From positions 1-46,492 of the forward strand of contig JANMFM010000048.1 of the NCBI GenBank assembly GCA_031374125.1: 46,492 nucleotides of DNA, written 5' to 3'. Positions 3,175-40,618 of this stretch are shown one piece after another (within the stretch, counting starts at the first letter, position 1; each line of letters opens with the position of its first letter). The DNA comes from Bdellovibrionales bacterium (GTDB taxonomy: Bacteria; Bdellovibrionota; Bdellovibrionia; Bdellovibrionales; JAEYZS01). The notes beneath the pieces are model-generated. The model did not search any database and had not been told where the DNA came from. It saw only the letters and a list, made by a program, of their open reading frames with translations. A program made the position numbers and the translations under genes.

Positions 3175-3411
3175 ATGTCTAACAAATCAGAAAAATGGAA
3201 AGAAAACAAACCAGGTAAGTTCTATGTGGATCAATCCTGCATATCTTGCGACGCTTGCGTTTGTGCAGCTCCTGATAACTTCACTATGAATGATGAAGAT
3301 GGGCACGCTTACATCACAAAACAGCCTGGGACAGCTCAAGAAGAAGAGGCTTGCAAAGAAGCAATGGAAGGTTGCCCGGTTGAGGCAATCGGAAACGATG
3401 GCGAAGAGTAA
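3175..3411 (+). CDS. small single-cluster ferredoxin
   Basis: The 78-aa product has C-I-S-C-D-A-C plus a distal C-P-V-E-A-I (CxxCxxC...CP), the pattern of a [3Fe-4S]/[4Fe-4S] ferredoxin. Confidence 0.75.
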   Translation: MSNKSEKWKENKPGKFYVDQSCISCDACVCAAPDNFTMNDEDGHAYITKQPGTAQEEEACKEAMEGCPVEAIGNDGEE

Positions 3412-4057
3412 AGAATCTTTCTCTGAAAAACACAAACGCGTTAAAAAAATCATCTCACTTCTAGCAAAAGAATATCCGGATGCACACTGTGCTCTTGATC
3501 ACGAAAGTGCGTTTCAACTTTTAGTAGCAACAATTTTGTCCGCGCAATGTACAGATGAACGTGTGAATAAAGTGACGCCGGCATTGTTCAAAAGATTTCC
3601 GACACCGCAAAGTTATTTGAAGGCAGATGTTTTGGAAATCGAAGAGTTTGTGCGTACGACTGGATTTTTCAAAAATAAAGCTAAGAATATCAAGGGTTGT
3701 GCAGAGCAATTGGTTGAAAAGCATAAAGGTGAGGTTCCACAAACTATGGAAGAGCTTCATGCGCTTCCAGGAGTGGGAAGGAAAACTGCCAATGTTGTAT
3801 TGGGAAATATTTTTGGAATTCCAGGAATGGTGGTCGATACGCACGTGACAAGACTTTCTAACCGCATGGGTTTTGTTAAAGGAACGGACGCCGTGAAACT
3901 GGAATTGGAACTTCAAAAATTAGTTCCCGAAAAAAACTGGACCATGTACTCACATTACTTGATTACCCACGGAAGAGCGATATGTACCGCAAGAAATCCT
4001 GACTGCAAAAATTGTTTTCTCAACAAAAATTGCCCGCAATTGCCCTATTCCAAGTAA
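3398..4057 (+). CDS. nth: endonuclease III (DNA-(apurinic/apyrimidinic site) lyase)
   Basis: It has the HhH-GPD motif LPGVGRKTANVVL followed by VVDTHV. The C-terminal Fe-S loop is C-x6-C-x2-C-x5-C (CTARNPDCKNCFLNKNC). I moved the start from 3290 to ATG 3398 (MAKSKESF...), giving 219 aa. The first 36 codons of the ORF-track version overlap the ferredoxin out of frame. Confidence 0.92.
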   Translation: MAKSKESFSEKHKRVKKIISLLAKEYPDAHCALDHESAFQLLVATILSAQCTDERVNKVTPALFKRFPTPQSYLKADVLEIEEFVRTTGFFKNKAKNIKGCAEQLVEKHKGEVPQTMEELHALPGVGRKTANVVLGNIFGIPGMVVDTHVTRLSNRMGFVKGTDAVKLELELQKLVPEKNWTMYSHYLITHGRAICTARNPDCKNCFLNKNCPQLPYSK

Positions 4058-4265
4058 CCCAATATTCTGTCAATATTGTAAACACTCGAGATGACAATTT
4101 GTCAGTTCAATGATCTTTTATATTTTTTAATGGCAAATCATTTTTATTAAAAAATATCAACAATATTAAATACTTATGATAGAAACGAGTAATTTCTAAG
4201 TACCTGATTTCCTTGGTATAAATATTGTAATTAAACATTACAGAATATTTTTTAGTGGAGATTTT

Positions 4266-4613
4266 ATGTTGTCTTCAAAGTCCAGAGTTATATCCCTGAC
4301 AGTTAGCCTATTGGTTGTAATGCAATTTACACCGGTACATGCCACCGATTTAACGTGCCGTGGTCTTTTTAAAGAAGCCTTATCAAGAGATAAAAAGAGT
4401 GAAGATGCAAATCCAATTTCTTCATTGATGGTCAAAAATTTAAAACTTAAACACAAACTACCTATCAGTGCTTATATCGAAATAATTGGTTATAAAAAAT
4501 TCTATGATAGTAATGGAGTAGAGGTAGGAGTTTCTACTTTATTCCAACCCATTCAACACAATATAAATAATTTAAAAGAAAGCCGCAGTGGATTAGATAA
4601 ATATCGCACATAA
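4266..4613 (+). CDS. exported hypothetical protein (signal peptide plus CxxLF tag); possibly the 5' part of a gene interrupted by an in-frame TAA
   Basis: GGAG lies 6 nt upstream of the ATG. The signal peptide ends ...TPVHA|TDLTCRGLF. The ORF ends at TAA 4611-4613, and the next ORF (4647) is in the same frame with no other stop between them. Confidence 0.55.
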   Translation: MLSSKSRVISLTVSLLVVMQFTPVHATDLTCRGLFKEALSRDKKSEDANPISSLMVKNLKLKHKLPISAYIEIIGYKKFYDSNGVEVGVSTLFQPIQHNINNLKESRSGLDKYRT

Positions 4614-4646
4614 ATTGACGAGCACAATTCAAAACTTTTTGAAAAA

Positions 4647-5579
4647 ATGGGATTTAAAGAATCAGAAGATCCAATTTTTGGAAAGTATATGTCAGAAGTT
4701 CCTAATCCCAAATTATTTGAATACTTAAGGGCGCAATACAACGCCCGCGTTCCAGCCGACATGCAAATAAATATGGGACTTTATCAATCTAAAGTAGTGT
4801 CTGCTCATCAAACGGAGTATGTTAAGCACTGGGTAAAAGATGGAACTATGGCTCTCAGCGATCCTAGATGGGGTTCGGTGTTTGGCTTGAAGCCCGAGCA
4901 ATTGTCAGAAAATATCACTGAAGGTAAAGAGAGAAATAGTCTTTACAGACATGATCTGGAGCACTTTGCTTCAATTTTTTTAATTCCTAAAAAAATTATT
5001 GATACAAACAGACAGATCGGAAGTTTTTGGGAAAAAGTACTTCGCCATATGCGTTCAGAGATTGCCAAAGGAAAAGTTTTAAAAGGTTCTCCGGAATGGC
5101 GTGCAATGATGGACGATGTTTATATTTATAATCGTCGCTTTCATAGTTTAACGCATTTAGTGGGTATATTGGTTCGCTCTAATGGATCTGTAGATGTGAA
5201 TAGCCAAGAGATAAAAGACTTTGGATTCGTCGCACGTGTAGAAACCCCAACGATTCACTGGGTAGGATTGGGTTATAAACCAAGCTGGGTAACTAAAGAC
5301 AGTTTGCCGTTTGAAAGCCGTTTATTGTCCTTAGGTTTAGAACAGTCTGTGGTTGCAAATAAAAATATCACCATAACAGATGCTTACGCAGCTGTGACTA
5401 ACGAAGGAATACAGCAAGCCATTCATTTTGTAAATAAACAGAAAAATACAAAATACAAAGCTATATATCAAAATTTTTTAGCGGAAACTAAAATCAATAA
5501 TGATTCTGAATTGAGGCCTGAAGAGCTTACAGAATTGGAACAACTAACTCTGCGCCGCTACCGCATAATGGGTAATTAA
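4647..5579 (+). CDS. hypothetical protein (no signal peptide, no recognisable domain); possibly the 3' part of the 4266 gene
   Basis: The 310-aa ORF is in the same frame as 4266..4613. It has no Shine-Dalgarno-like sequence upstream of its ATG. Only 4 nt separate it from the next gene. Confidence 0.5.
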   Translation: MGFKESEDPIFGKYMSEVPNPKLFEYLRAQYNARVPADMQINMGLYQSKVVSAHQTEYVKHWVKDGTMALSDPRWGSVFGLKPEQLSENITEGKERNSLYRHDLEHFASIFLIPKKIIDTNRQIGSFWEKVLRHMRSEIAKGKVLKGSPEWRAMMDDVYIYNRRFHSLTHLVGILVRSNGSVDVNSQEIKDFGFVARVETPTIHWVGLGYKPSWVTKDSLPFESRLLSLGLEQSVVANKNITITDAYAAVTNEGIQQAIHFVNKQKNTKYKAIYQNFLAETKINNDSELRPEELTELEQLTLRRYRIMGN

Positions 5580-5583
5580 ACTT

Positions 5584-6723
5584 ATGACCCTAAAATTTAA
5601 AATATTAATCTATATTTTAATATCTGCGATATCTCTGAATGTCCATGCGAAGTCTTTGTGTGCGAGTTTATTTGATGAAAACTTAGAGCAATATGTACGT
5701 GTTAGCCCAGAGGTATTGGCTCATCCTATAAAACTTCTATCTGACAATTACGATGCGCGTGAATTTGTTCAATCTAAATTTAAAATAATATTCAAAAATT
5801 TTTTTGCATCACAAATGATAGATGCCAAAATAGCGATTAATCTCTCCCCCAGAGGTACGCTGCATGTGGTTTCCAGGGGTTTAACGAAAATTCAACATGA
5901 TGAGCTAATGAAGTTTATAGAGAGAGAACAGATAGATCATCTTTTGGCGGGAATTCCCAATTTCCTTCGTAATAAATATTTTGAGGTTAAAATTGATAAA
6001 AAAGAAAATGGCCAACACACGGTCACCAGTGAAACAAAATTTTCTTGGCAATTGAGTTTTGCGGTTGATAGCCAATTGCGAAGCGGATTTGCAATAGAAA
6101 ATAATCCTGCCACGGATTTGAAGAGAATTCGTCCTTTTATTGAAAGGTCTTCTTTGTCTACATATCCTATTCGTACAGATTTATTGAGCCAAAGGCGAAG
6201 CCAAGATACTTTGGTAACGTGCGGATTGTCTTCCCTTGCCCAAGTTTTAAATGCGAAAGGGATTCCTGTGGGTGAAAGAGAGCTTTTGAGACTTACAGAA
6301 TCTTTAGGCATAAAAACGAAGGCCGACATTTTTGGTAATCACCCTGGCCTTGAATTATCACAACTTGCACAATTAATAACTCAATTAGGAAAGCGTTATA
6401 ATTTTACGGTTACGATGAGAAAAATGGAAGGTGAAGAGGATACTGCCAAATTTAATGAAATAGTGAGAAGAAGCAGTGAAGGCCTCGCTAAAGTGGATAT
6501 CATTCTAAACTATCATTCTCCTGAAATTGGAAGACCAGGGCATGGGCATTTTTCTCCCGTTGCCGGATTTGATATTAGAACCAATGAACTTTTGGTTAGT
6601 GAAACAAACCTGACTGCAAATCCTCCATTTTGGGTTGAACTGAGTGCCATGTTAAACGCTATGAAAGCATCGGCGCATAGTGCGGAGGGTCCGCGAGGTT
6701 ATATCGTAATTGAATGGAAATGA
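5584..6723 (+). CDS. exported two-domain protein: unknown N-terminal domain plus C-terminal phytochelatin-synthase-like (papain-fold gamma-glutamylcysteine peptidase) domain
   Basis: The signal peptide ends ...LNVHA|KSLCASLF. The C-terminal half aligns by eye to the PCS catalytic domain: TCGLSSLAQVLNAKG (Cys213) and GHGHFSPVAGFD...LLVSE...NPPFWVELSAMLNAM (His322, Glu340). The Cys-His spacing is 109 and the His-acid spacing is 18, against 106 and 18 for plant PCS1 Cys56/His162/Asp180 as I recall them. Confidence 0.7.
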   Translation: MTLKFKILIYILISAISLNVHAKSLCASLFDENLEQYVRVSPEVLAHPIKLLSDNYDAREFVQSKFKIIFKNFFASQMIDAKIAINLSPRGTLHVVSRGLTKIQHDELMKFIEREQIDHLLAGIPNFLRNKYFEVKIDKKENGQHTVTSETKFSWQLSFAVDSQLRSGFAIENNPATDLKRIRPFIERSSLSTYPIRTDLLSQRRSQDTLVTCGLSSLAQVLNAKGIPVGERELLRLTESLGIKTKADIFGNHPGLELSQLAQLITQLGKRYNFTVTMRKMEGEEDTAKFNEIVRRSSEGLAKVDIILNYHSPEIGRPGHGHFSPVAGFDIRTNELLVSETNLTANPPFWVELSAMLNAMKASAHSAEGPRGYIVIEWK

Positions 6724-6763
6724 GGAAATTTTTTGATTTTTTAATTTTTAACCGGGATTGATA

Positions 6764-8284
6764 ATGAAAATATTAAGAATTGTTTTTACATTTATTTTTA
6801 TATTGGGAATTAGCACTCCTTCTTTTGCTAATAATCTTTGTAGCAATTTATTTTCATTGAGCTATAGCCCCGCGTTTCCATCGGATGCAGCGACTGCAAG
6901 TAGGGTCCGCTTCGAAATCGAAAATGCAAAAAGAGCCTCTCGACTTTTCATGAAAGCTTTGAAAAGAAAATCAGATATTTTAAAAAGAAATTTTTATAAA
7001 AAAATAATAGATTTAGAAATGGTGTGTATTGGTGCGGGTCCACAATGTGCGTCGGCATCTTTGGTTTTGGGACGTGCCGGCAGAGCCGCCATTGTAATAG
7101 AAAAAACAGAACATATTGCTAAAACCTTTGCCGAAAAAGACTTTATCATCAACAGTGTAGAAACTGGAACTCTCAGTATGCATGAGTTTCCTGGAGGCGT
7201 TGGAAGTTTAGCGAATTACTCATCTTCGAAGTATGCGCATTCCTCCCAATTGGCTGCCTATATCCAGGGGCAGCAAAGCCATTCGAAAATCCCCGTTCTT
7301 CTGGGAACGACGGTGACTTCGATCAGAGAAATAAATATCGATGGCAAGACACTGGTTGAAATCAAAACAGATCAGAACATCACCTTCAGAACGCCTCGCT
7401 TAATATTAGGAACAGGTATAGGGGAAGTGGCTTCCAAAATTCCAGATAATAACTACGTGATGGAGTTCAATAAAAATCATTTGATGCATTTAGAAAATCC
7501 AGCAAAGATTTTGCCTATAATGTGCACGGATACGTTACTGGTCTCTCTGAAAATCAATGCCAAAAAGAATAAAACTGTAACTTTACCTAAAGAAGTGATC
7601 ATCATTGGTGACGGAGATGGCTCGAGAATTGCCGTTGAAGGATTGATCGACGCTCATGTTAACTTGCCTCAAGGTTTCAAATTAACTTGGGTTGGAAATG
7701 ACTTCCGTACGGCGGTAGAATATGTAGCAAGTCGTGGAGGCGGTGATCGTTATATTCATAAAATAGTTCCACTTTATGAAAATAATCAAATTGAAGGAAC
7801 AAATGGAAAGGCTGAAAAAGTGGACTTTCTGGAAAACGGCAGAATGCGCGTGACAGTCTACAATAAAGAAAAGAATACCAGAGTGACGGTAGAAGGTGAC
7901 ATGATCATTGATACCACGGGCGCGCAGAGTGTAAGTGGTATGCTTATCCAAAGTGCAGGCGAAGTAAGATTAGTTGATGTTAAAGGCGAGCTCAAAGAAA
8001 TGAATTTGGATTCGACAGTGCTCGGCAGGCAGTACGTTACGGAATTGGGACGTCCACTTCCGATTTATGCTGTAGGACCAACTGCAGGCGCATTGGCGAC
8101 AAAAGAAGAGTTGGTGAATTCGCAAAATCAAAACCCGGTAGCTATTTTCAATACGGTAGGAAGGACTTCGGCGCTGATTTCAAATTTATTAGGAGTTCCT
8201 CATCTTCCTAGCAATAGAGGTGCGCGCAAAGAGCGTCCACCAGTCCAAAATGCAGAGGATATCGTACGGCAAATCAATAAATAA
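6764..8284 (+). CDS. exported FAD/NAD(P)-binding oxidoreductase (two-dinucleotide-binding-domain flavoprotein; subfamily unresolved)
   Basis: The signal peptide ends ...TPSFA|NNLCSNLF. The first Rossmann motif is MVCIGAGPQCASASLVLG...IVIEK, the second is VIIIGDGDGSRIAVEGL, and a late motif is IYAVGPTAG. I placed the start at ATG 6764; TTG 6758 is also possible. Confidence 0.65.
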   Translation: MKILRIVFTFIFILGISTPSFANNLCSNLFSLSYSPAFPSDAATASRVRFEIENAKRASRLFMKALKRKSDILKRNFYKKIIDLEMVCIGAGPQCASASLVLGRAGRAAIVIEKTEHIAKTFAEKDFIINSVETGTLSMHEFPGGVGSLANYSSSKYAHSSQLAAYIQGQQSHSKIPVLLGTTVTSIREINIDGKTLVEIKTDQNITFRTPRLILGTGIGEVASKIPDNNYVMEFNKNHLMHLENPAKILPIMCTDTLLVSLKINAKKNKTVTLPKEVIIIGDGDGSRIAVEGLIDAHVNLPQGFKLTWVGNDFRTAVEYVASRGGGDRYIHKIVPLYENNQIEGTNGKAEKVDFLENGRMRVTVYNKEKNTRVTVEGDMIIDTTGAQSVSGMLIQSAGEVRLVDVKGELKEMNLDSTVLGRQYVTELGRPLPIYAVGPTAGALATKEELVNSQNQNPVAIFNTVGRTSALISNLLGVPHLPSNRGARKERPPVQNAEDIVRQINK

Positions 8285-8528
8285 AATTCATCAAGCGTGT
8301 ACATTTTACTTGGTTGTATAAAAGTGAGATGTAATAAAACAGTAGAGGGATAGTGATTTAGATTTCTTGATGAATTTTTTATTCATTCGCTAGCATTTTT
8401 TTACAAAAAAACCATTACATCTATTTTATTTAAGCACCCCCTGTTATATTGCATCGATATAAAAATCATTCGGTTTGATAATTTTGGAAATTAATCCAAC
8501 AAAATTTCGAGTGGTGTTGGTACAGGTT

Positions 8529-8681
8529 ATGTTCAAGAGTTTAACTGTAATTCTATTTTTTTTATCCCTTCAGTTTTGTTCCGAGGCTTCTTATGCTATG
8601 AGTTGCCAGGCTCTATTCTCAACAAATAACCCTACTGCAGAATTACCTAATGCTCTAAACTGTTCGATCTATGCAAAATAA
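8529..8681 (+). CDS. short ORF encoding only a signal peptide plus CxxLF tag; probably the detached 5' end of the next ORF
   Basis: The product is MFKSLTVILFFLSLQFCSEASYA|MSCQALFSTNNP..., with a stop after about 27 mature residues. It overlaps the 8671 ORF by 11 nt in a different frame. The start is taken at ATG 8529 rather than the ORF-track 8475. Confidence 0.4.
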   Translation: MFKSLTVILFFLSLQFCSEASYAMSCQALFSTNNPTAELPNALNCSIYAK

Positions 8682-9150
8682 ATTAGCTAGAATTTTAGAT
8701 TCTGCAATCACGGAAGGTATTGAAGCCATCCAAAAATACGATATAAGAAATGAAGCCATCTTGAGAACCATTGAGCTTTATAAATCAGGGTACTTACGAA
8801 AAGTTGATCATATATATTTATCAGATACCGAATTAAAAAATATTTTTGTACAACATGCGACGTTAGAATTAATGCTAGGGGAATTATTTTCTGCGTTATT
8901 CCCACAGTCTAATGTATTTAACAAAATTCAAATGATTATGTGGTACATCCCGATGCGGGAAAATCAAAGGTTTGATTTTTTATTAAGGGCTGTGACTTCG
9001 CAAGACCTTAATCTTCTTCCATACAGAGCGTCTATTAGAGAAACTCTAAACAACGGTTACATAGATCAGGTGATTAGCACAGATGAACATAGTCAGCTTA
9101 TTTATGCTTTAGAATCAAATGCACAAAGAATGTCAAATTTTGGAAATTAA
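8671..9150 (+). CDS. hypothetical protein (no signal peptide, no recognisable domain)
   Basis: The 159-aa ORF has no SD-like sequence ahead of its ATG, and that ATG lies inside the preceding short ORF. Confidence 0.5.
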   Translation: MQNKLARILDSAITEGIEAIQKYDIRNEAILRTIELYKSGYLRKVDHIYLSDTELKNIFVQHATLELMLGELFSALFPQSNVFNKIQMIMWYIPMRENQRFDFLLRAVTSQDLNLLPYRASIRETLNNGYIDQVISTDEHSQLIYALESNAQRMSNFGN

Positions 9151-9163
9151 TAATTTAAAAATC

Positions 9164-9185
9164 GCGCTTTAATGTAAAAAAGCGC
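9164..9185. terminator. hairpin between convergent genes (candidate terminator)
   Basis: GCGCTTT (9164-9170) pairs with AAAGCGC (9179-9185), giving a 7-bp stem and 8-nt loop. It has no strong T-tract. Confidence 0.35.
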
Positions 9186-9281: not shown

Positions 9282-10265
9282 TTATTTTTTTTCGGCGAGT
9301 TGTCGGGGACGGTCTTTGATTTCATAATTTATGAAAACATTGAGACCTTTCTCCATTTGACCGAAGTACACTGGAGCCATTTTGTAGTCGATGGTTGGAA
9401 GCTCAACAGTAATAGTTGGGATTCCTTTGTACCTGCCAGCGTAATTTCCTAAACTTCCAGGAAATGTTCCGTAAGCGTAGAAGTTTAAGCCCGTCGCAGA
9501 TTTATCGAGTTGTTGCCTTAGAAGATCACAAGACTTTACATAAGTTTCTGTAAATTTCTTTGCAGCTTCACTATCTATACCACTGAGAGGTCCATCAAAA
9601 TCCAAATGATTGAGAGGTGAGTGGACACTTAAGATTTTTGCTGGTTTAAATTCTTCGATAAGCCATTTTTGGAATTCTATTTCTGGCTCGGAGGCCGCTT
9701 TGTCGCCAGGGAAATAGCGTCTTTGAGAACCGTACTTTGTTTTCCAAATTTTTTGCGCTTGTTCGCCCCATTCAGGAGTGTCGAAGTTTCTATTGAGATC
9801 CACTTTATTATAGTTTGTTCTAGTTCCAGTAGTATACCTCAAGAATCCATCAGGATTCACAATTGGAGCGACAACTATAAAGGATTTTTCACAAAGCTCT
9901 GGTCTTGCCTTAAGCCATTCCACTACGCGAAAACCAAAATAAACAGGCGTAATTTCGTCGCCATGAACTGCGGACAGAATAAGCGAAGTATTTTCGTTCT
10001 CAGGCTTTCCGCAAGTCCAATAAACCAAGGGGCGTCCATAAACAGAATGCCCTTTTTCTCTCCATCCAGCTTTTGGGAAAAAGCTTAAATCCCAATTCCA
10101 TTTTTTACCCTCAATACGTCCTCTGATTTCTTCCATCATCTCTTCAGAAGAGACTTTTTTGGCCTGGAAAAAGTTAGGGGCAGTCGTCTTTTGCTCAGCG
10201 TAAAGATTGCTAGCATTTATCAATGTAAATGTTAATAATGTAGATATAATAAATGTGAATTTCAT
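9282..10265 (-). CDS. M14-family zinc carboxypeptidase (MpaA / murein-peptide amidase-like), exported
   Basis: It has the zinc-binding motif SAVHGDE, then PIVNPDG and VDLNRNF. The signal peptide is MKFTFIISTLLTFTLINASNLYA. I moved the start from 10343 to ATG 10265. Confidence 0.8.
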   Translation of the reverse strand: MKFTFIISTLLTFTLINASNLYAEQKTTAPNFFQAKKVSSEEMMEEIRGRIEGKKWNWDLSFFPKAGWREKGHSVYGRPLVYWTCGKPENENTSLILSAVHGDEITPVYFGFRVVEWLKARPELCEKSFIVVAPIVNPDGFLRYTTGTRTNYNKVDLNRNFDTPEWGEQAQKIWKTKYGSQRRYFPGDKAASEPEIEFQKWLIEEFKPAKILSVHSPLNHLDFDGPLSGIDSEAAKKFTETYVKSCDLLRQQLDKSATGLNFYAYGTFPGSLGNYAGRYKGIPTITVELPTIDYKMAPVYFGQMEKGLNVFINYEIKDRPRQLAEKK

Positions 10266-10317
10266 AGGCATCTCTAAATTTGACATGTCTAGAGTCATAC
10301 TTGCAAGGATTTTAAAT

Positions 10318-10800
10318 ATGTTTACGGCATTTTTTGAGAGCATAAAATATGTAGGACATTTGTATCCTGTTGCTTTCTTAAGAATTTTTTTAGGTTACTA
10401 TTGGCTTAACCAGGCATTAACAGAATATCAAACTGGACTTTTTACCTCGCAAGTATTCATCGACCAGGTCCAATCTTCAGATTATGTCTATAGTTTTCCG
10501 ACATGGTACAAATGGCTATTTGAGCATCTTGCTTATCCATACTGGTCGATGATGAGCCATGGCATTTTAACCGTGAGCTTCCTCGTAGGCCTTTCGTTAC
10601 TCATTGGATTTATGGTAAGGCCGTTTGGAATCATAGGAATTTTAATTTCATTTCATTATGTGATTTTTGGAGTAGGGTATCAGAACTTATTGTATTCAAC
10701 GTTTGTCGCAATATTTGTAACCATCGTGGCAATTGGAGCCGGTCGCTGCGTTGGCTTTGATTACTATTTCTACAAAAGGAATCGCGGCATTTGGTGGTAG
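10318..10800 (+). CDS. DoxX-family integral membrane protein
   Basis: It has four hydrophobic segments and the C-terminal motif AIGAGRCVGFD typical of DoxX/DoxD-like proteins. The start could be ATG 10318 or 10285. The ORF-track start at 10207 overlaps the divergent peptidase gene. Confidence 0.6.
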   Translation: MFTAFFESIKYVGHLYPVAFLRIFLGYYWLNQALTEYQTGLFTSQVFIDQVQSSDYVYSFPTWYKWLFEHLAYPYWSMMSHGILTVSFLVGLSLLIGFMVRPFGIIGILISFHYVIFGVGYQNLLYSTFVAIFVTIVAIGAGRCVGFDYYFYKRNRGIWW

Positions 10801-10801
10801 T

Positions 10802-11818
10802 ATGATTAAAAGATTTTTTTCCATATTCGTTCCCATAGCATTACTGGTCTCCATTTATATTTACCTTTACGAAGAAGATTCGCCCAAGGAACAGGGAGCT
10901 GTCGTTGTTTACACGTACTCTTCATTCGCAAGCTCTTGGGGGCCGGGTCCTGAGCTTCAGAAAATTTTTAAAGAAAAAACAGGATACAATGTCGAATTCA
11001 CAGATGTGGGTGAGGCTGGCATCATTATCCAAAGAATTTTACTGGAAAAAGAAAAAACAAAAGCCGATGTTGTTCTAGGGCTGGATCAGTACCAATTGCA
11101 AAACACAGTTATCACAGACTTATTCACACAACCTCCCGAGCCTAGTTATAAACTTGATGAGTCAACTCCTAAGAAAATTCAACAAGGCCCATTTCTGGCA
11201 TACAATTGGTCCCCTATGACATTCATCTACAGAACTTCTGACAGGAATTCGCTTCCCAAAAAACTAGATGATTTTTTATCTCCAAAATTTAAAGGAAAAA
11301 TAATTTTATTGGACCCAAGAACCAGTTCTCCTGGTTATATATTTTTCCACTGGATTGTTCAAAAATATGGAGTTGAAGGGGCAAAGAATTTTTTAAATCA
11401 AATTAAAAAAAATATTTACACCGTAACTCCTTCGTGGAGTGCAGGCTACGGACTCTTTAAGAAAAAACAATCTCAATATGTTTTCTCTTATTTGACTTCG
11501 CCGGCTTATCATTGGGTAGAAGAAAGTGATTTTGATTACCAACCACTCTACCTCGAAGAAGAGCTTCCATATCATATCGAATATGCCGGAATTTTAAAAT
11601 CGACAAAGAATAAACCCGCAGCAGAAAAATTTCTAGAATTTATTTTTTCTCCAGAAGCTCAAGAAATAATCATGAATAAAAACTATATGCTTCCCGTAGT
11701 TGCTGAGGTTCAAAAAAATTCAGAATACGAAAAACTAAAGAAAGTAAAATTATTTGAGTCAGATAAAATCATTTCTAGAGACGAAGTTATTGAGACTTGG
11801 AAATCGGCTTCATGGTAA
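10802..11818 (+). CDS. thiB: thiamine ABC transporter periplasmic binding protein
   Basis: It aligns closely by eye to E. coli TbpA: VVVYTYSSFASSWGPGP, KADVVLGLD, LLDPRTSSPG, SWSAGYGLF and SYLTSPAYH. The start at ATG 10802 is followed by a signal/anchor segment. Confidence 0.88.
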   Translation: MIKRFFSIFVPIALLVSIYIYLYEEDSPKEQGAVVVYTYSSFASSWGPGPELQKIFKEKTGYNVEFTDVGEAGIIIQRILLEKEKTKADVVLGLDQYQLQNTVITDLFTQPPEPSYKLDESTPKKIQQGPFLAYNWSPMTFIYRTSDRNSLPKKLDDFLSPKFKGKIILLDPRTSSPGYIFFHWIVQKYGVEGAKNFLNQIKKNIYTVTPSWSAGYGLFKKKQSQYVFSYLTSPAYHWVEESDFDYQPLYLEEELPYHIEYAGILKSTKNKPAAEKFLEFIFSPEAQEIIMNKNYMLPVVAEVQKNSEYEKLKKVKLFESDKIISRDEVIETWKSASW

Positions 11819-28785: not shown

Positions 28786-29163
28786 ATGAAAATATTAATT
28801 TTTTCTGCAATTACTTTTTCTTTTTTAACTGCTAATGCAGATCCAAACTGTAAAGAACTTTCTTCTTATGTTGGAAAATATAAAATGATTAGCAAGACGT
28901 GCGATAATAAAATTGCAGGAGATGAGCTGTCTGTAGAGTTACAAGATAAATCGTATATGCTCACAACAGATGGATTGTTTATCGGAGTTAACACAGGCTC
29001 TGGGATGATTGATACATGTACATTAAGTTCTGATGGAGTTACTGTGCAAACATGCGCTAATTCTACGACTTGTTTACCTCAGCATTGGTATTATCAATTT
29101 TCGGGAAAACACCTGACGTTTTCAGCAAAAGGTTGTCAGGCCAATTATAATAAACTTGATTAA
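28786..29163 (+). CDS. small exported six-cysteine protein
   Basis: The signal peptide is MKILIFSAITFSFLTANA|DPNCKEL. The mature ~107-aa part has six Cys. A good terminator follows. Confidence 0.6.
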   Translation: MKILIFSAITFSFLTANADPNCKELSSYVGKYKMISKTCDNKIAGDELSVELQDKSYMLTTDGLFIGVNTGSGMIDTCTLSSDGVTVQTCANSTTCLPQHWYYQFSGKHLTFSAKGCQANYNKLD

Positions 29164-29247: not shown

Positions 29248-30069
29248 CTAACCCCTTTTTTGCTTCCAAGGATCTCCAGGTATCAGGCTAATAACATTTT
29301 TAATTAAATCTTCATAAGCATTTTTTAGGTCAAATGAATCTCCTGAAATTAAAAGTGAGGATATATCAGCAGAAAAATCTGGGTCCTTCATTTTTTCAAA
29401 AAGATTCTTCTCAAAGTTAGCTCTTGAAACGGAATTATCCTCGTGATTCATGTAAGCCAAAAAGCATTCAACGATCTGTTTGGATGAGATATTAGGAAAG
29501 TCATCGTAAACTTTTTGAAAATCAAATAGGTCCCGCCCTTTTTTTCTTTGATACAAAGCTCTAAGCTTGGTTCCCATGATTTCTTCAATCTCAAATGTTG
29601 TAATATCTGCTTTTCCTTTAAACCAAGAGCTATCTACCTCAAATGGGACGTACTTGTATCCCAAAACAGAAAAGTGCTCAGAGCTATTGATTTCTATTTT
29701 TAGTTTCATGCTTTTCTTTGGCGCATTTTCTGATAGGTATTTATATCTCAAGGTAACCCGGCCTTTCTTTTGATCCACGGTGGGTTTTCCAAGCCATCCA
29801 TCCAATTTTTTTCGAATAACGGTTATAACAGAACCGATTTTTGCTTTTGTAATTTGAACCAAGTCAATATCTTCAGAGTATCTCTGAGGTGTTTTAAAAA
29901 ATATTTTTTGTAAAGATGTCCCACCTCGAAATGATAGAGAATCTTGAATGATTCCATCTGAGTAAAGCTCACACAAAGCCCTACTGATAATGAGATCTTG
30001 TTCAACTTGGTGGTCATCTATCCAAGGAGCGTGTTCTCGCCATTCTGTAATAAAAGAAGAAGGGATCAT
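29248..30069 (-). CDS. abiEii: AbiEii/AbiGii-family nucleotidyltransferase toxin (DUF1814), type IV toxin-antitoxin
   Basis: It has the pol-beta NTase motif FRGGTSLQKIF...RYSEDIDLV (G[GS]-x-DxD). Its 273-aa size fits the family. It overlaps the upstream AbiEi-like gene by 4 nt. Confidence 0.8.
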   Translation of the reverse strand: MIPSSFITEWREHAPWIDDHQVEQDLIISRALCELYSDGIIQDSLSFRGGTSLQKIFFKTPQRYSEDIDLVQITKAKIGSVITVIRKKLDGWLGKPTVDQKKGRVTLRYKYLSENAPKKSMKLKIEINSSEHFSVLGYKYVPFEVDSSWFKGKADITTFEIEEIMGTKLRALYQRKKGRDLFDFQKVYDDFPNISSKQIVECFLAYMNHEDNSVSRANFEKNLFEKMKDPDFSADISSLLISGDSFDLKNAYEDLIKNVISLIPGDPWKQKRG

Positions 30070-30881
30070 ACTTCGTCAGCCTCAATTTTTGTATTGATTA
30101 GTATTTTCCATTTGTCATTTTTTTTCAAAATTTTTCCTGAGGCGCTAGGTTGCAACTTTACAAAACTTGTATCTTGCTCTAATAGCCATTCTTTGATTTT
30201 TAAAGAACATTTTTTTTCACCAGTAAATTCGAGCAAATAACCAAGTCGTTGTACAAACGAAAGATCTTTGGATTGCTTACAAAGCTTTATCATTTCGGAT
30301 ACTTTTAATTTACCTTTTAATTCTGCAAAAACGGTTGCGACATGATTCAGTCCGCCAGCTCTTTTGCAGTAATGGATGAGATCAAAGGCGGTCATTTCAG
30401 GTGTTGATACATTAATTTGTCCGGTAGGTACATTTATTTTTTCTATAGGTGAATTTTTAATATTCTTCTTAGTAAAGAATTTTATTTTTACTCGGCCAAA
30501 TGTAATTGTTCTTAATGGTCTCAGAGTCATGATTTGTAATTCTTGAGCAGCTTGATGAGTGGCTCCGTGATAAGTGGCCGCAGAAAGTAACCCTACATAA
30601 TAGGGTATATTGTGGTATTTCATTAGATTATCAATATACATTGTCGGAGGTAGCACTTTATTTAATTGATACTCGATAGGAATAATCACATAAAATCCAT
30701 TAGAAATTTTTTGAATTTTCCCCTTTTTAGATAAGCGAAAAATAAATTGGCGAAAAGCATTTTCGCTTATATTAATGGATGTAATAATCTCTTCTTTAGT
30801 AAAAGTAATGCGCCCTTTTTTTTGAAAATTCTCAAGTAATCCTATCAGATTAGTTTTTGATACTTTATTTACCATGTGCAT
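30066..30881 (-). CDS. abiEi: AbiEi-family antitoxin / transcriptional autoregulator (N-terminal wHTH)
   Basis: The 271-aa gene sits directly upstream of and coupled to the DUF1814 toxin gene. Its N-terminus is winged-helix-like (ITFTKEEIITSINISENAFRQFIFRLSKKGKIQKISNGFY). Palindromic repeats lie immediately upstream. Confidence 0.7.
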   Translation of the reverse strand: MHMVNKVSKTNLIGLLENFQKKGRITFTKEEIITSINISENAFRQFIFRLSKKGKIQKISNGFYVIIPIEYQLNKVLPPTMYIDNLMKYHNIPYYVGLLSAATYHGATHQAAQELQIMTLRPLRTITFGRVKIKFFTKKNIKNSPIEKINVPTGQINVSTPEMTAFDLIHYCKRAGGLNHVATVFAELKGKLKVSEMIKLCKQSKDLSFVQRLGYLLEFTGEKKCSLKIKEWLLEQDTSFVKLQPSASGKILKKNDKWKILINTKIEADEV

Positions 30882-39425: not shown

Positions 39426-40618
39426 AGCCTTTCCGTTAAATTTATAATTGGAGCATTCATAATTTCTTCCACAGATCTAAAGTTGTATTCTAGGTGATAC
39501 ATCGGTGAAGGGGGCATGTGCTTTATGCTTTTATTTACGCATCTCATGCTTGTGCATTTTTCTGGATCAATGAATGTGGAGGCAGAAACAGTTTCCCCTG
39601 GTGCTAAGTGGATGACATAGACATTTCCTTTATCAATAACCTTTGTCTCATCTGAAAAACTTAAGCTTAAATCCATATGAATGATGGTGCTCTTATCATA
39701 ATCATTATCGTGGCCATGGTGAGTGGTCAGTACAAATGGCGCATTTTTTAAAGAAGCTTTATCTAGGGCTACAGACAGGGGGACGGAGTGAGGATTCACT
39801 AGACTCAGCTGGTAGGCAAATAGTCTGCGCCCCTCATATGTTCTACTTCTATCAAAGCTGTATTGGGGAGCCAATTTCTCGAATTGTATTTTGAACTTAT
39901 TGGAAATGGTTTTTTTATTCTCTGTATTGATGGCCACTCTGCAAAACTGATTGGGTTTGTATTTTTGCAAGGGAATATCTTGAACTGTTGTATTCACTTT
40001 AGAAATAAAATGTCCTAGCGAAAGAGAGTTTAATCCGGGATTTTTTACTTGAGCAGTGAATGTATCACAAACGAGGCTGACAAATTCATCGCCTTTTAGA
40101 TTTAGAATTTGCGCAGAATTAAAATTAGAAAAAATCACAGATTCGTTCATTGAGAAATCTGCTGCAAAATTGTTTAAATCAATATTTCTTTCTGGCAAGG
40201 CATAGGTTTTTGTTGATCCAGCTGAATTTTGAAGCTGAACTAAAATTTTACAAGAGGTAAATTCCTGTGGATATAGCGTAGCCTCGATGGGTAAAATTTC
40301 TTTCACTTGGATATTGTTTTTCTTATATGAATTGATGGCTACAAATGATTTTCCTTCACTCACACATTTTACATCTGCTTTTATTGTGAAAGAGGAGTCA
40401 CTGTTTTTCATTTCTTCGGGATTTGTTGTTTTTAGTTGAGCATTCGCGAAATAAATGTAGTCGTTCAACTGTAGGGCATCTTGATTGGTCAGAACGGTAT
40501 TTTTATTTCCTTCTGACCTTAAATAATAAATATTAGGGGCTTCCCAATTGTCTTTGTTTTTGCCCCCACTGCAGTTAACCAATAATATCGAAACTAAAAC
40601 TAAAAATATAATTTGCAT
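39422..40618 (-). CDS. hypothetical lipoprotein
   Basis: The product begins MQIIFLVLVSILLVN|C with a lipobox. It is beta-rich and no domain is recognised. I moved the start from 40648 to ATG 40618. Confidence 0.5.
   Translation of the reverse strand: MQIIFLVLVSILLVNCSGGKNKDNWEAPNIYYLRSEGNKNTVLTNQDALQLNDYIYFANAQLKTTNPEEMKNSDSSFTIKADVKCVSEGKSFVAINSYKKNNIQVKEILPIEATLYPQEFTSCKILVQLQNSAGSTKTYALPERNIDLNNFAADFSMNESVIFSNFNSAQILNLKGDEFVSLVCDTFTAQVKNPGLNSLSLGHFISKVNTTVQDIPLQKYKPNQFCRVAINTENKKTISNKFKIQFEKLAPQYSFDRSRTYEGRRLFAYQLSLVNPHSVPLSVALDKASLKNAPFVLTTHHGHDNDYDKSTIIHMDLSLSFSDETKVIDKGNVYVIHLAPGETVSASTFIDPEKCTSMRCVNKSIKHMPPSPMYHLEYNFRSVEEIMNAPIINLTERL

Follow-up and report, generated by a model that had tools for sequence, protein, structure and literature searches.

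Why do four neighbouring genes, whose products are otherwise unrelated, encode the same short peptide directly behind their signal peptides? The question is raised by a 46,492-nucleotide stretch of a Bdellovibrionales bacterium (GenBank assembly GCA_031374125.1, contig JANMFM010000048.1, positions 1 to 46,492; hereafter the window), in which four adjacent plus-strand genes carry the motif C-x-x-L-F two to four residues past an AxA-like site that follows a signal peptide. We find that this motif, in the wider form C-x-x-(L/V/I)-F, is a real tag of exported enzymes in Bdellovibrionota that is maintained by selection. Its existence and conservation are well supported, and our tentative reading of its role is that of a covalent thiol tether. 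The genes and their tags are as follows.

4266..5579, plus strand: gene 1, exported protein of unassigned function, rich in invariant His
4266-4343, plus strand: predicted signal peptide of gene 1, followed by the tag TDLTCRGLF at 4344-4370 (Cys codon 4356-4358)
5584..6723, plus strand: gene 2, exported protein with an unassigned N-domain and a phytochelatin synthase (PCS)-like, papain-fold C-domain at ~6175-6702
5584-5649, plus strand: predicted signal peptide of gene 2, followed by the tag KSLCASLF at 5650-5673 (Cys codon 5659-5661)
6764..8284, plus strand: gene 3, exported enzyme resembling flavoproteins with two dinucleotide-binding domains
6764-6829, plus strand: predicted signal peptide of gene 3, followed by the tag NNLCSNLF at 6830-6853 (Cys codon 6839-6841)
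8529..9150, plus strand: gene 4, orphan exported protein, read in one frame over 8529-8681 and in the next over 8671-9150
8529-8597, plus strand: predicted signal peptide of gene 4, followed by the tag MSCQALF at 8598-8618 (Cys codon 8604-8606)

With a slash marking the predicted cleavage, the N-termini of genes 1 to 4 read MLSSKSRVISLTVSLLVVMQFTPVHA/TDLTCRGLF (site ...TPVHA), ...SLNVHA/KSLCASLF, ...STPSFA/NNLCSNLF and ...SEASYA/MSCQALF, with the ATG codons of genes 3 and 4 at 6764 and 8529. Translation of the open reading frames (ORFs) places all four motifs in frame and at the positions given in a first-pass annotation of this DNA, which had taken them for a non-random pattern at a fixed spot after a site of the signal peptidase I type. 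Both a scan and a chance computation bear this out. Across all six frames of the window we found seven occurrences of C-x-x-L-F, four of them the tags of genes 1-4. Going by its amino-acid composition, the window should have 0.67 occurrences in its 14,348 coding residues, whereas five were seen, and four of these five sit two to four residues past an AxA-like site. The probability that at least four of 12-20 signal-peptide proteins would carry the motif no more than seven residues from the cleavage site is ~6e-12 to 6e-11. Cleavage sites here are predictions from the n-, h- and c-region layout and the (-3,-1) rule only. By this heuristic, the four window proteins and their homologues have the layout expected for Sec export and signal peptidase I, with a basic n-region, an h-region of ~10-15 residues and small residues at -3 and -1.

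The first-pass annotation had itself named absence from orthologues as grounds for dismissing the tag. Instead, the tag is kept in the orthologues of three families, down to 37% identity. In the gene 3 family its Cys is present in 23/23 aligned homologues, where it is the sole invariant Cys, and in two further metagenome loci. These relatives include Bdellovibrio bacteriovorus (CAE80621.1 / Q6MJD9, AQA/ALTCESVF) and Bdellovibrio sp. HCB209; at 37-40% identity, the tag takes the form CALAV, CQQVI, CHQVV or CKTVV. Every gene 2 homologue has a Cys at the tag position (CESFF, CRSLF, CQDLF, CKALL, CVEVL and, at locus L095, CVYLF), and gene 1 homologues show PLCGALF, QTCSQLF, LTCTKLF, NKCEQVH and IACFEAQ. 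The proteins had been called unrelated outside the motif, and profile-profile comparison of the three family alignments with hhalign agrees: just 8-19 columns around C~~lf, the tag alone, could be aligned. Homology between the families outside the tag is thus ruled out.

A sequence logo of 42 non-redundant N-termini defines what is held constant. Cys is found in 42/42. At +3 from the Cys, L, V, I or F occurs in 34/42, with Ala in five more; +4 is F in 27/42 and V, L, I or Y in another 13, and +2 shows a mild preference for S or A. Upstream, A is preferred at -4 and -3, N or P at -2 and S or T at -1. A (-3,-1)-compatible site lies zero to four residues before the Cys in 39 of the 42 sequences, and the Cys itself always falls within ~7 residues of the signal-peptide end. 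The Leu-Phe pair of the motif as first described is therefore a preference and no strict rule, since distant homologues show AV, VI or VV in its place.

Could such a pattern be without function, either a chance occurrence or the relic of a common ancestral 5' segment? The motif is short, and its ~10 bits of information proved too few for a 19-column hidden Markov model (HMM) built from the gene 3 tags to tell the other families apart from six-frame noise. Set against this are a chance probability of ~1e-11, the retention of the tag over deep divergence in three families while its flanks vary, and its absence from all 179 signal-peptide ORFs inspected in other phyla. Moreover, no DNA similarity was found among the four 5' coding segments, which use different codons, and thus they are not recent copies of one another. 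A tag without function is effectively refuted by its conservation and has next to no claim left. Recent duplication of the 5' ends was considered separately and is ruled out by the same lack of DNA similarity.

The tag Cys is unpaired. In the gene 1 family, mature proteins contain exactly one Cys, that of the tag, and the same holds for five distant gene 3 homologues, most others having three. Mature Cys counts of the tagged proteins are mostly odd. In the gene 2 family only two Cys are invariant, Cys26 of the tag and the catalytic Cys213, together with His322. An intramolecular structural disulfide was rejected as a general explanation, because the tag Cys is the sole mature Cys in the gene 1 family and in the five distant gene 3 homologues. 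AlphaFold2 leaves the arm that carries the tag disordered and undocked on its own domain in both modelled families (genes 2 and 3). In gene 2, residues 19-53, tag included, have a predicted local distance difference test score (pLDDT) of ~33. The gene 3 model has a mean pLDDT of 88.6, with residues 14-33 below 50 and the fold beginning near residue 40.

A signal peptide, an invariant unpaired Cys, a disordered tether and a globular domain are also what a lipoprotein processed by Lgt, LspA and Lnt has in common with the tagged proteins. They might therefore be ordinary lipoproteins with a relaxed lipobox, in which Lgt and LspA would turn the Cys into residue +1. In accordance with this, -1 is S, T or A in 27/42 N-termini, Asn at -1 is found in unmistakable lipoproteins of these organisms, and the LALNC of sequence P0004 would match. 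However, the first-pass annotation was right that the tag is no lipobox, as the residues at -1, -2 and -3 and the upstream charges all break the rule. Whereas a lipobox reads [LVI]-[ASTVI]-[GAS]-C directly after the h-region, the tag has no L-[AS]-[GAS] before its Cys, which lies an estimated ~8-12 residues beyond the h-region, with polar or charged residues in between and, two to four residues upstream of the Cys, a nearly universal AxA-like signal peptidase I site. In 15/42 N-termini the residue at -1 is one of L, R, K, I, V, Y, Q or N; N or P occupies -2 in 23/42, and Ala, not Leu, predominates at -3. PROSITE PS51257 forbids D, E, R and K in the six residues ahead of a lipobox; in ~16/45 of our sequences charged residues occur there (e.g. 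HAKSLC, HATDLTC, ANPPRC and GAEKC). The same contigs encode ~15 canonical lipoproteins of a different appearance, with the Cys right after the h-region and G, A, S or N at -1. We thus consider ordinary lipoprotein processing very improbable.

The use of Asn at -1 is a relaxation of the lipobox relative to the E. coli rule. Clear lipoproteins of this kind are encoded on the minus strand of the window at ~40571-40618 (LLVNC followed by SGG) and at locus L100, also on the minus strand, at 6818-7633 (SFQNC, then SG) and 7868-9172 (LFQNC, then GP).

How widely the tag is distributed was assessed by a rule-based count, using a stricter signal-peptide heuristic, ORFs of at least 150 amino acids and the pattern AxA-x(1-7)-C-x-x-Φ-Φ, in a small, homology-biased sample. 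In other phyla (~1.2 Mb) 0/179 signal-peptide ORFs carry the tag. In the Bdellovibrionota loci it is found in 12/82, all 12 from the three families used to fetch the loci, and in none of the remaining ~70. Within this sample the tag is lineage-restricted, and it looks like the mark of a small, often co-located gene set, probably not a secretome-wide signal. Outside the three families its carriers are gene 4, a 141-amino-acid protein at locus L002 and possibly one C-terminal case. The L002 protein, SHA/KAISCSEIL, is encoded two genes upstream of a PCS-like gene. Tagged genes cluster there as they do in the window, where four stand together, and the overlapping gene 1-gene 2 pair occurs in three independent contigs (the window, L001 and L095).

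The possible C-terminal case lies beside a gene 3 homologue (L090:151-1152). It is a signal-peptide protein with the sequence HELRH (HExxH), and its only mature Cys is in the C-terminal ...IPRCGALFRN, which precedes the stop codon. PRCGALFRN may be a C-terminal copy of the tag, as read from this single sequence, and, if real, would imply that the element acts as a linear motif at a terminus without a membrane segment beside it. In contrast, the weaker relative proposed earlier at 28786 does not belong here; that protein has six mature Cys and reads CKELS. No Pfam or NCBIfam model matched the tag, even at E<=10 with isolated N-termini, and we found no description in the literature of the motif or of a Bdellovibrio N-terminal Cys signal.

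What kind of protein carries the tag? The gene 2 product matches PF05023 with E=2e-21 and 76.6 bits against a cut-off of 24.9. Foldseek relates its model to the glutathione acyl-enzyme structures of Nostoc Alr0975 (6tho and 2bu3; E=6e-10, template modelling (TM) score to target up to 0.76). With the PF05023 match, the conserved Cys and the Alr0975 fold all present, the C-domain is predicted from sequence and model to belong to the phytochelatin synthase family, and the enzyme probably uses glutathione. An exact look-up of gene 2 among public assemblies gave no record. A profile search with a six-sequence PCS-like alignment found no relative among 185,579 species genomes, which indicates that both the gene 2 family and the window's lineage are absent from the GTDB representatives.

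Gene 3 gives a weak match to Pfam Pyr_redox_3 (28.4, under the cut-off of 30) and contains a Rossmann-type GxGxxG sequence (GAGPQCASAS). Its best folds in Foldseek are the bacillithiol disulfide reductase Bdr/YpdA (7a7b, TM score to target 0.72), ferredoxin reductases (FNRs) of the thioredoxin reductase (TrxR) type and N-hydroxylases, with E ~5e-15 for 7a7b, 5ygq and 6xbb. Sequence and model agree on a putative flavoprotein with two dinucleotide-binding domains and a TrxR/FNR/Bdr-like two-domain fold, which probably needs flavin adenine dinucleotide (FAD) and NAD(P)H. A metagenome scan with the gene 3 alignment returned only four loci. The gene 1 family has the invariant motifs RHDxEHF, RRFHSLxH and ETPxxHW, and the protein has no match among Pfam, NCBIfam or PDB sequences.

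The mobile thiol on gene 3 brings to mind a different role, that of a catalytic or regulatory group on a swinging arm. On the Bdr/TrxR-like flavoprotein it might serve as a redox relay; on the PCS-like cysteine enzyme, the His-rich gene 1 product or the HExxH protein it might instead cap the active site and keep the enzyme latent until reduction. TrxR and MerA have flexible redox-active tails, a C-terminal tail in TrxR and a C-terminal Cys pair in MerA. Gene 3 resembles both thioredoxin reductases and the single-Cys bacillithiol disulfide reductase and, like them, would present a reactive thiol on a mobile terminal arm of a TrxR fold. That the tag Cys is the only mature Cys of five distant gene 3 homologues, and that the one other invariant Cys of the gene 2 family is catalytic, fits such a role. 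The PRCG of the L090 HExxH protein recalls the cysteine switch of matrix metalloproteinases (PRCGxPD), where likewise one unpaired Cys sits in a short conserved peptide that is not part of the catalytic domain.

However, the tag differs from these redox tails in that it follows a signal peptide at the N-terminus and also marks proteins that are not flavoproteins (the PCS-like protein, gene 1 and gene 4). It differs from the cysteine switch in that the tagged proteins have no propeptide domain, are mostly not metalloproteases and show no predicted docking, AlphaFold2 placing the arm on neither enzyme. One would not expect unrelated active sites to converge on one C-x-x-L-F peptide at a constant distance from the signal peptide, and gene 4 and the small L002 protein are tagged while having no recognisable catalytic domain. 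For these reasons we regard a swinging-arm thiol as quite unlikely.

Genes 2 and 3 have Sec-type signals and no twin-arginine motif, though their likely cofactors and substrates are cytoplasmic. Sec signals on enzymes with substrates of this type favour a destination past the predator's periplasm. This raises the possibility of a recognition peptide, bound non-covalently, that directs a further round of export, either through the outer membrane or into prey, with the Cys as one recognition residue among several. A disordered terminal linear motif common to unrelated cargo fits this, as does cargo that has Sec signals and no twin-arginine motif, although its likely substrates or cofactors are glutathione, FAD and NAD(P)H. 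Precedents exist for short linear elements at a mature N-terminus that set a second sorting step: the N-terminal 22 residues of mature CsgA (N22) target CsgA to CsgG, and the Bacteroidota lipoprotein export signal follows Cys+1. The tag resembles them in form and position. Yet N22 has another sequence and no essential internal Cys, the Bacteroidota signal requires a lipidated Cys+1, and for the tag we found no cognate transporter and no translocator gene linked to tagged genes. An invariant Cys amid variable neighbours points to chemistry rather than shape, and only few families carry the tag. Overall, a non-covalent export signal seems improbable.

Among the closest described signals are those of the MYXO-CTERM type, invariant-Cys sorting tags of related phyla, formerly grouped with Bdellovibrio, which are predicted to be lipidated and to anchor proteins at the surface (PMC11980579; bioRxiv 10.1101/2023.06.07.544157). 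Like the tag, they are short invariant-Cys signatures that adjoin a membrane-spanning segment and mark otherwise unrelated exported proteins. The tag could thus be their N-terminal mirror, a non-canonical lipidation or surface-sorting signal handled by an enzyme other than Lgt/LspA and serving as an outer-membrane anchor or for display by type II secretion. The lipoprotein layout described above speaks for this, as do the invariant, unpaired Cys (42/42), its constant proximity (no more than ~7 residues) to the signal-peptide end and the hydrophobic residues beside it, which would favour a membrane interface.

There are significant differences, however. Whereas MYXO-CTERM-type signals are C-terminal and tripartite, their motif adjoining a transmembrane helix and an Arg cluster, and mark dozens of proteins per genome, the tag is N-terminal, follows a cleavable Sec signal and was seen in five or six carrier families among the loci covered. 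The possible C-terminal instance at L090 has neither a transmembrane segment after it nor an Arg cluster, and no NCBIfam model matched the tag at E<=10. A CPBP protease is expected to co-occur with signals of this type, but the window contains none (no PF02517 match), nor a similar gene. We know of no enzyme that would modify the tag Cys. A CaaX box, with its Cys four residues from the C-terminus, does not fit either, the tags being N-terminal and the L090 Cys seventh from the end. We therefore rate non-canonical lipidation as possible, though on the unlikely side. The tag most resembles a lipoprotein Cys or a Cys-based sorting signal, yet it fails the defining features of both. It corresponds to no sorting signal described so far and thus probably marks a novel mode of anchoring or directing secreted enzymes.

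Exported proteins generally avoid odd numbers of Cys unless a Cys is functional, a tendency that has reportedly been noted across exported proteins. The mostly odd counts of the tagged proteins thus point to a covalent thiol link. We hypothesise that the unpaired Cys on its flexible arm forms such a link to tether or assemble the enzymes, with an intermolecular disulfide ranked first; we place this reading ahead of the others while giving it somewhat less than an even chance. After Sec export, signal peptidase I would cut at the AxA-like site and leave a free N-terminus of zero to six residues, then one unpaired Cys and the hydrophobic pair, these standing on a disordered arm and 10-25 residues before the folded enzyme. 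In the oxidising periplasm, the exposed thiol would form a covalent intermolecular link, most likely a disulfide with a partner protein or with a second tagged enzyme; L/V/I at +3 and F at +4, the hydrophobic pair, would serve for docking. The link would hold or assemble the enzymes in the predator envelope, and reduction would release them, for example on meeting the cytoplasmic thiols of prey. All of this is inferred, from the site of cleavage and the covalent link with its chemistry to the partner and the release. A disulfide tether ranks first because it calls for no new enzyme and agrees with both the clustering and the C-terminal case, and because a reducing compartment would reverse it.

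Several observations weigh against this thiol tether. The window holds no obvious candidate for a partner, an oxidoreductase or a modifying enzyme, and the neighbourhoods of tagged genes have nothing consistently in common. The conservation of the L/V/I and F positions is left unexplained by a disulfide on its own. In B. bacteriovorus the gene 3 homologue stands alone; the tag's role is thus independent of genes 1 and 2, and any partner would have to be either a protein encoded at another locus or a second copy of the homologue. In addition, cleavage was predicted heuristically, the tag is seen in five or six families of a small, homology-biased sample, and the C-terminal instance is one sequence. 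The Cys-centred sorting, maturation or modification tag proposed in the first-pass annotation nevertheless holds up as the best general reading, strengthened by the unpaired Cys and the disordered arm, with cleavage, modification and sorting themselves being hypothetical steps.

A more far-reaching reading combines tethering with sorting. Here, the tag (signal peptidase I site, zero to six residues, C-x-x-L/V/I-F) would be a previously undescribed N-terminal Cys-based signal on a few Sec-exported effector enzymes whose targets are thiols and cofactors of the cytoplasm, namely the PCS-like enzyme, which would cleave glutathione, the flavoprotein of the Bdr/TrxR type, the His-rich enzyme and the HExxH protease. 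These would be held on the predator envelope by a disulfide or a thio-lipid and be released or activated by reduction in the prey cytoplasm. We put this scenario forward as a speculative and, in its entirety, unlikely one. The tag bears on how Bdellovibrio-like predators sort their many exported hydrolytic and metabolic enzymes between their own envelope and the prey. It offers a concrete, mutable handle, namely one Cys and two hydrophobic residues, in a culturable carrier, B. bacteriovorus (CAE80621.1 / Q6MJD9). Were the Cys lipidated or disulfide-tethered, the tag would extend the expanding repertoire of Cys-based sorting signals in prokaryotes by an N-terminal member and would account for the Sec export of enzymes that need glutathione or NAD(P)H. 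Even a mere dimerisation disulfide would provide a useful annotation rule for these hypothetical protein families.

How did four tagged genes come to lie side by side? The first-pass annotation listed the four motifs correctly and did not mention that two of the genes are disrupted or that the cluster is an inserted islet. Gene 1 is interrupted by an in-frame TAA at 4611-4613, where the orthologue has a Glu codon (GAA-like). Global alignment with the intact 419-amino-acid orthologue (L001:5452-6711) continues through this codon, and the two ORFs of 115 and 310 amino acids are thus a single gene of 437 codons. Either a nonsense mutation arose here recently or the assembly is in error. Gene 4 contains a frameshift near 8660-8672, in an A-rich run within 8660-8681 (GCAAAATAAATT); removal of one A joins its 50-amino-acid tagged N-terminus to an ORF of 159 amino acids. 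Among 1.84e9 representative proteins, the only homologue of gene 4 besides the window's own ORF is a 71-amino-acid fragment. A repeat search showed that gene 4 is bracketed by exact copies of a 16-nucleotide sequence, which look like the footprint of a cassette insertion or a duplication. The repeats and the surrounding islet are located as follows.

8480..8495, plus strand: left copy of the 16-nucleotide direct repeat AATTTTGGAAATTAAT (100% identity, spacing 656 nucleotides)
9136..9151, plus strand: right copy of AATTTTGGAAATTAAT, overlapping the gene 4 stop codon
4058..10206, no strand: low-GC islet of ~6 kb with genes 1-4 and a divergent exported M14 carboxypeptidase
9282-10343, minus strand: exported M14 carboxypeptidase (M14 family match)
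3398-4057: nth, left flank of the islet
10207-11818: conserved membrane protein/thiB-like pair, right flank of the islet

The GC content is 0.343 in 4001-6000 and ~0.39 across the window. In five Bdellovibrionota loci (L006, L007, L011, L036 and L074), the gene for the membrane protein and/or the thiB-like gene comes immediately after nth. The tag-gene cluster is thus an accessory inserted islet in which two of the four genes are damaged. A further disrupted tag gene occurs in an independent contig, at L095:8481-9629, where a gene 2 homologue downstream of a gene 1 homologue is split into ORFs of 250 and 125 amino acids.

The window is otherwise ordinary chromosome, with nth, a thiamine-type ABC transporter, transketolase, alaS, recA, trxB and an AbiE toxin-antitoxin pair. 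The best identity of its nth protein is 59-60%, to metagenome-assembled genomes of Bdellovibrionaceae, Bdellovibrio and Pseudobdellovibrionaceae, and the source is thus a member of the Bdellovibrionota without a close genome among the GTDB representatives. The AbiEii/AbiEi pair, a type IV toxin-antitoxin system on the minus strand (29248-30881), adjoins the small exported six-Cys protein at 28786-29163.

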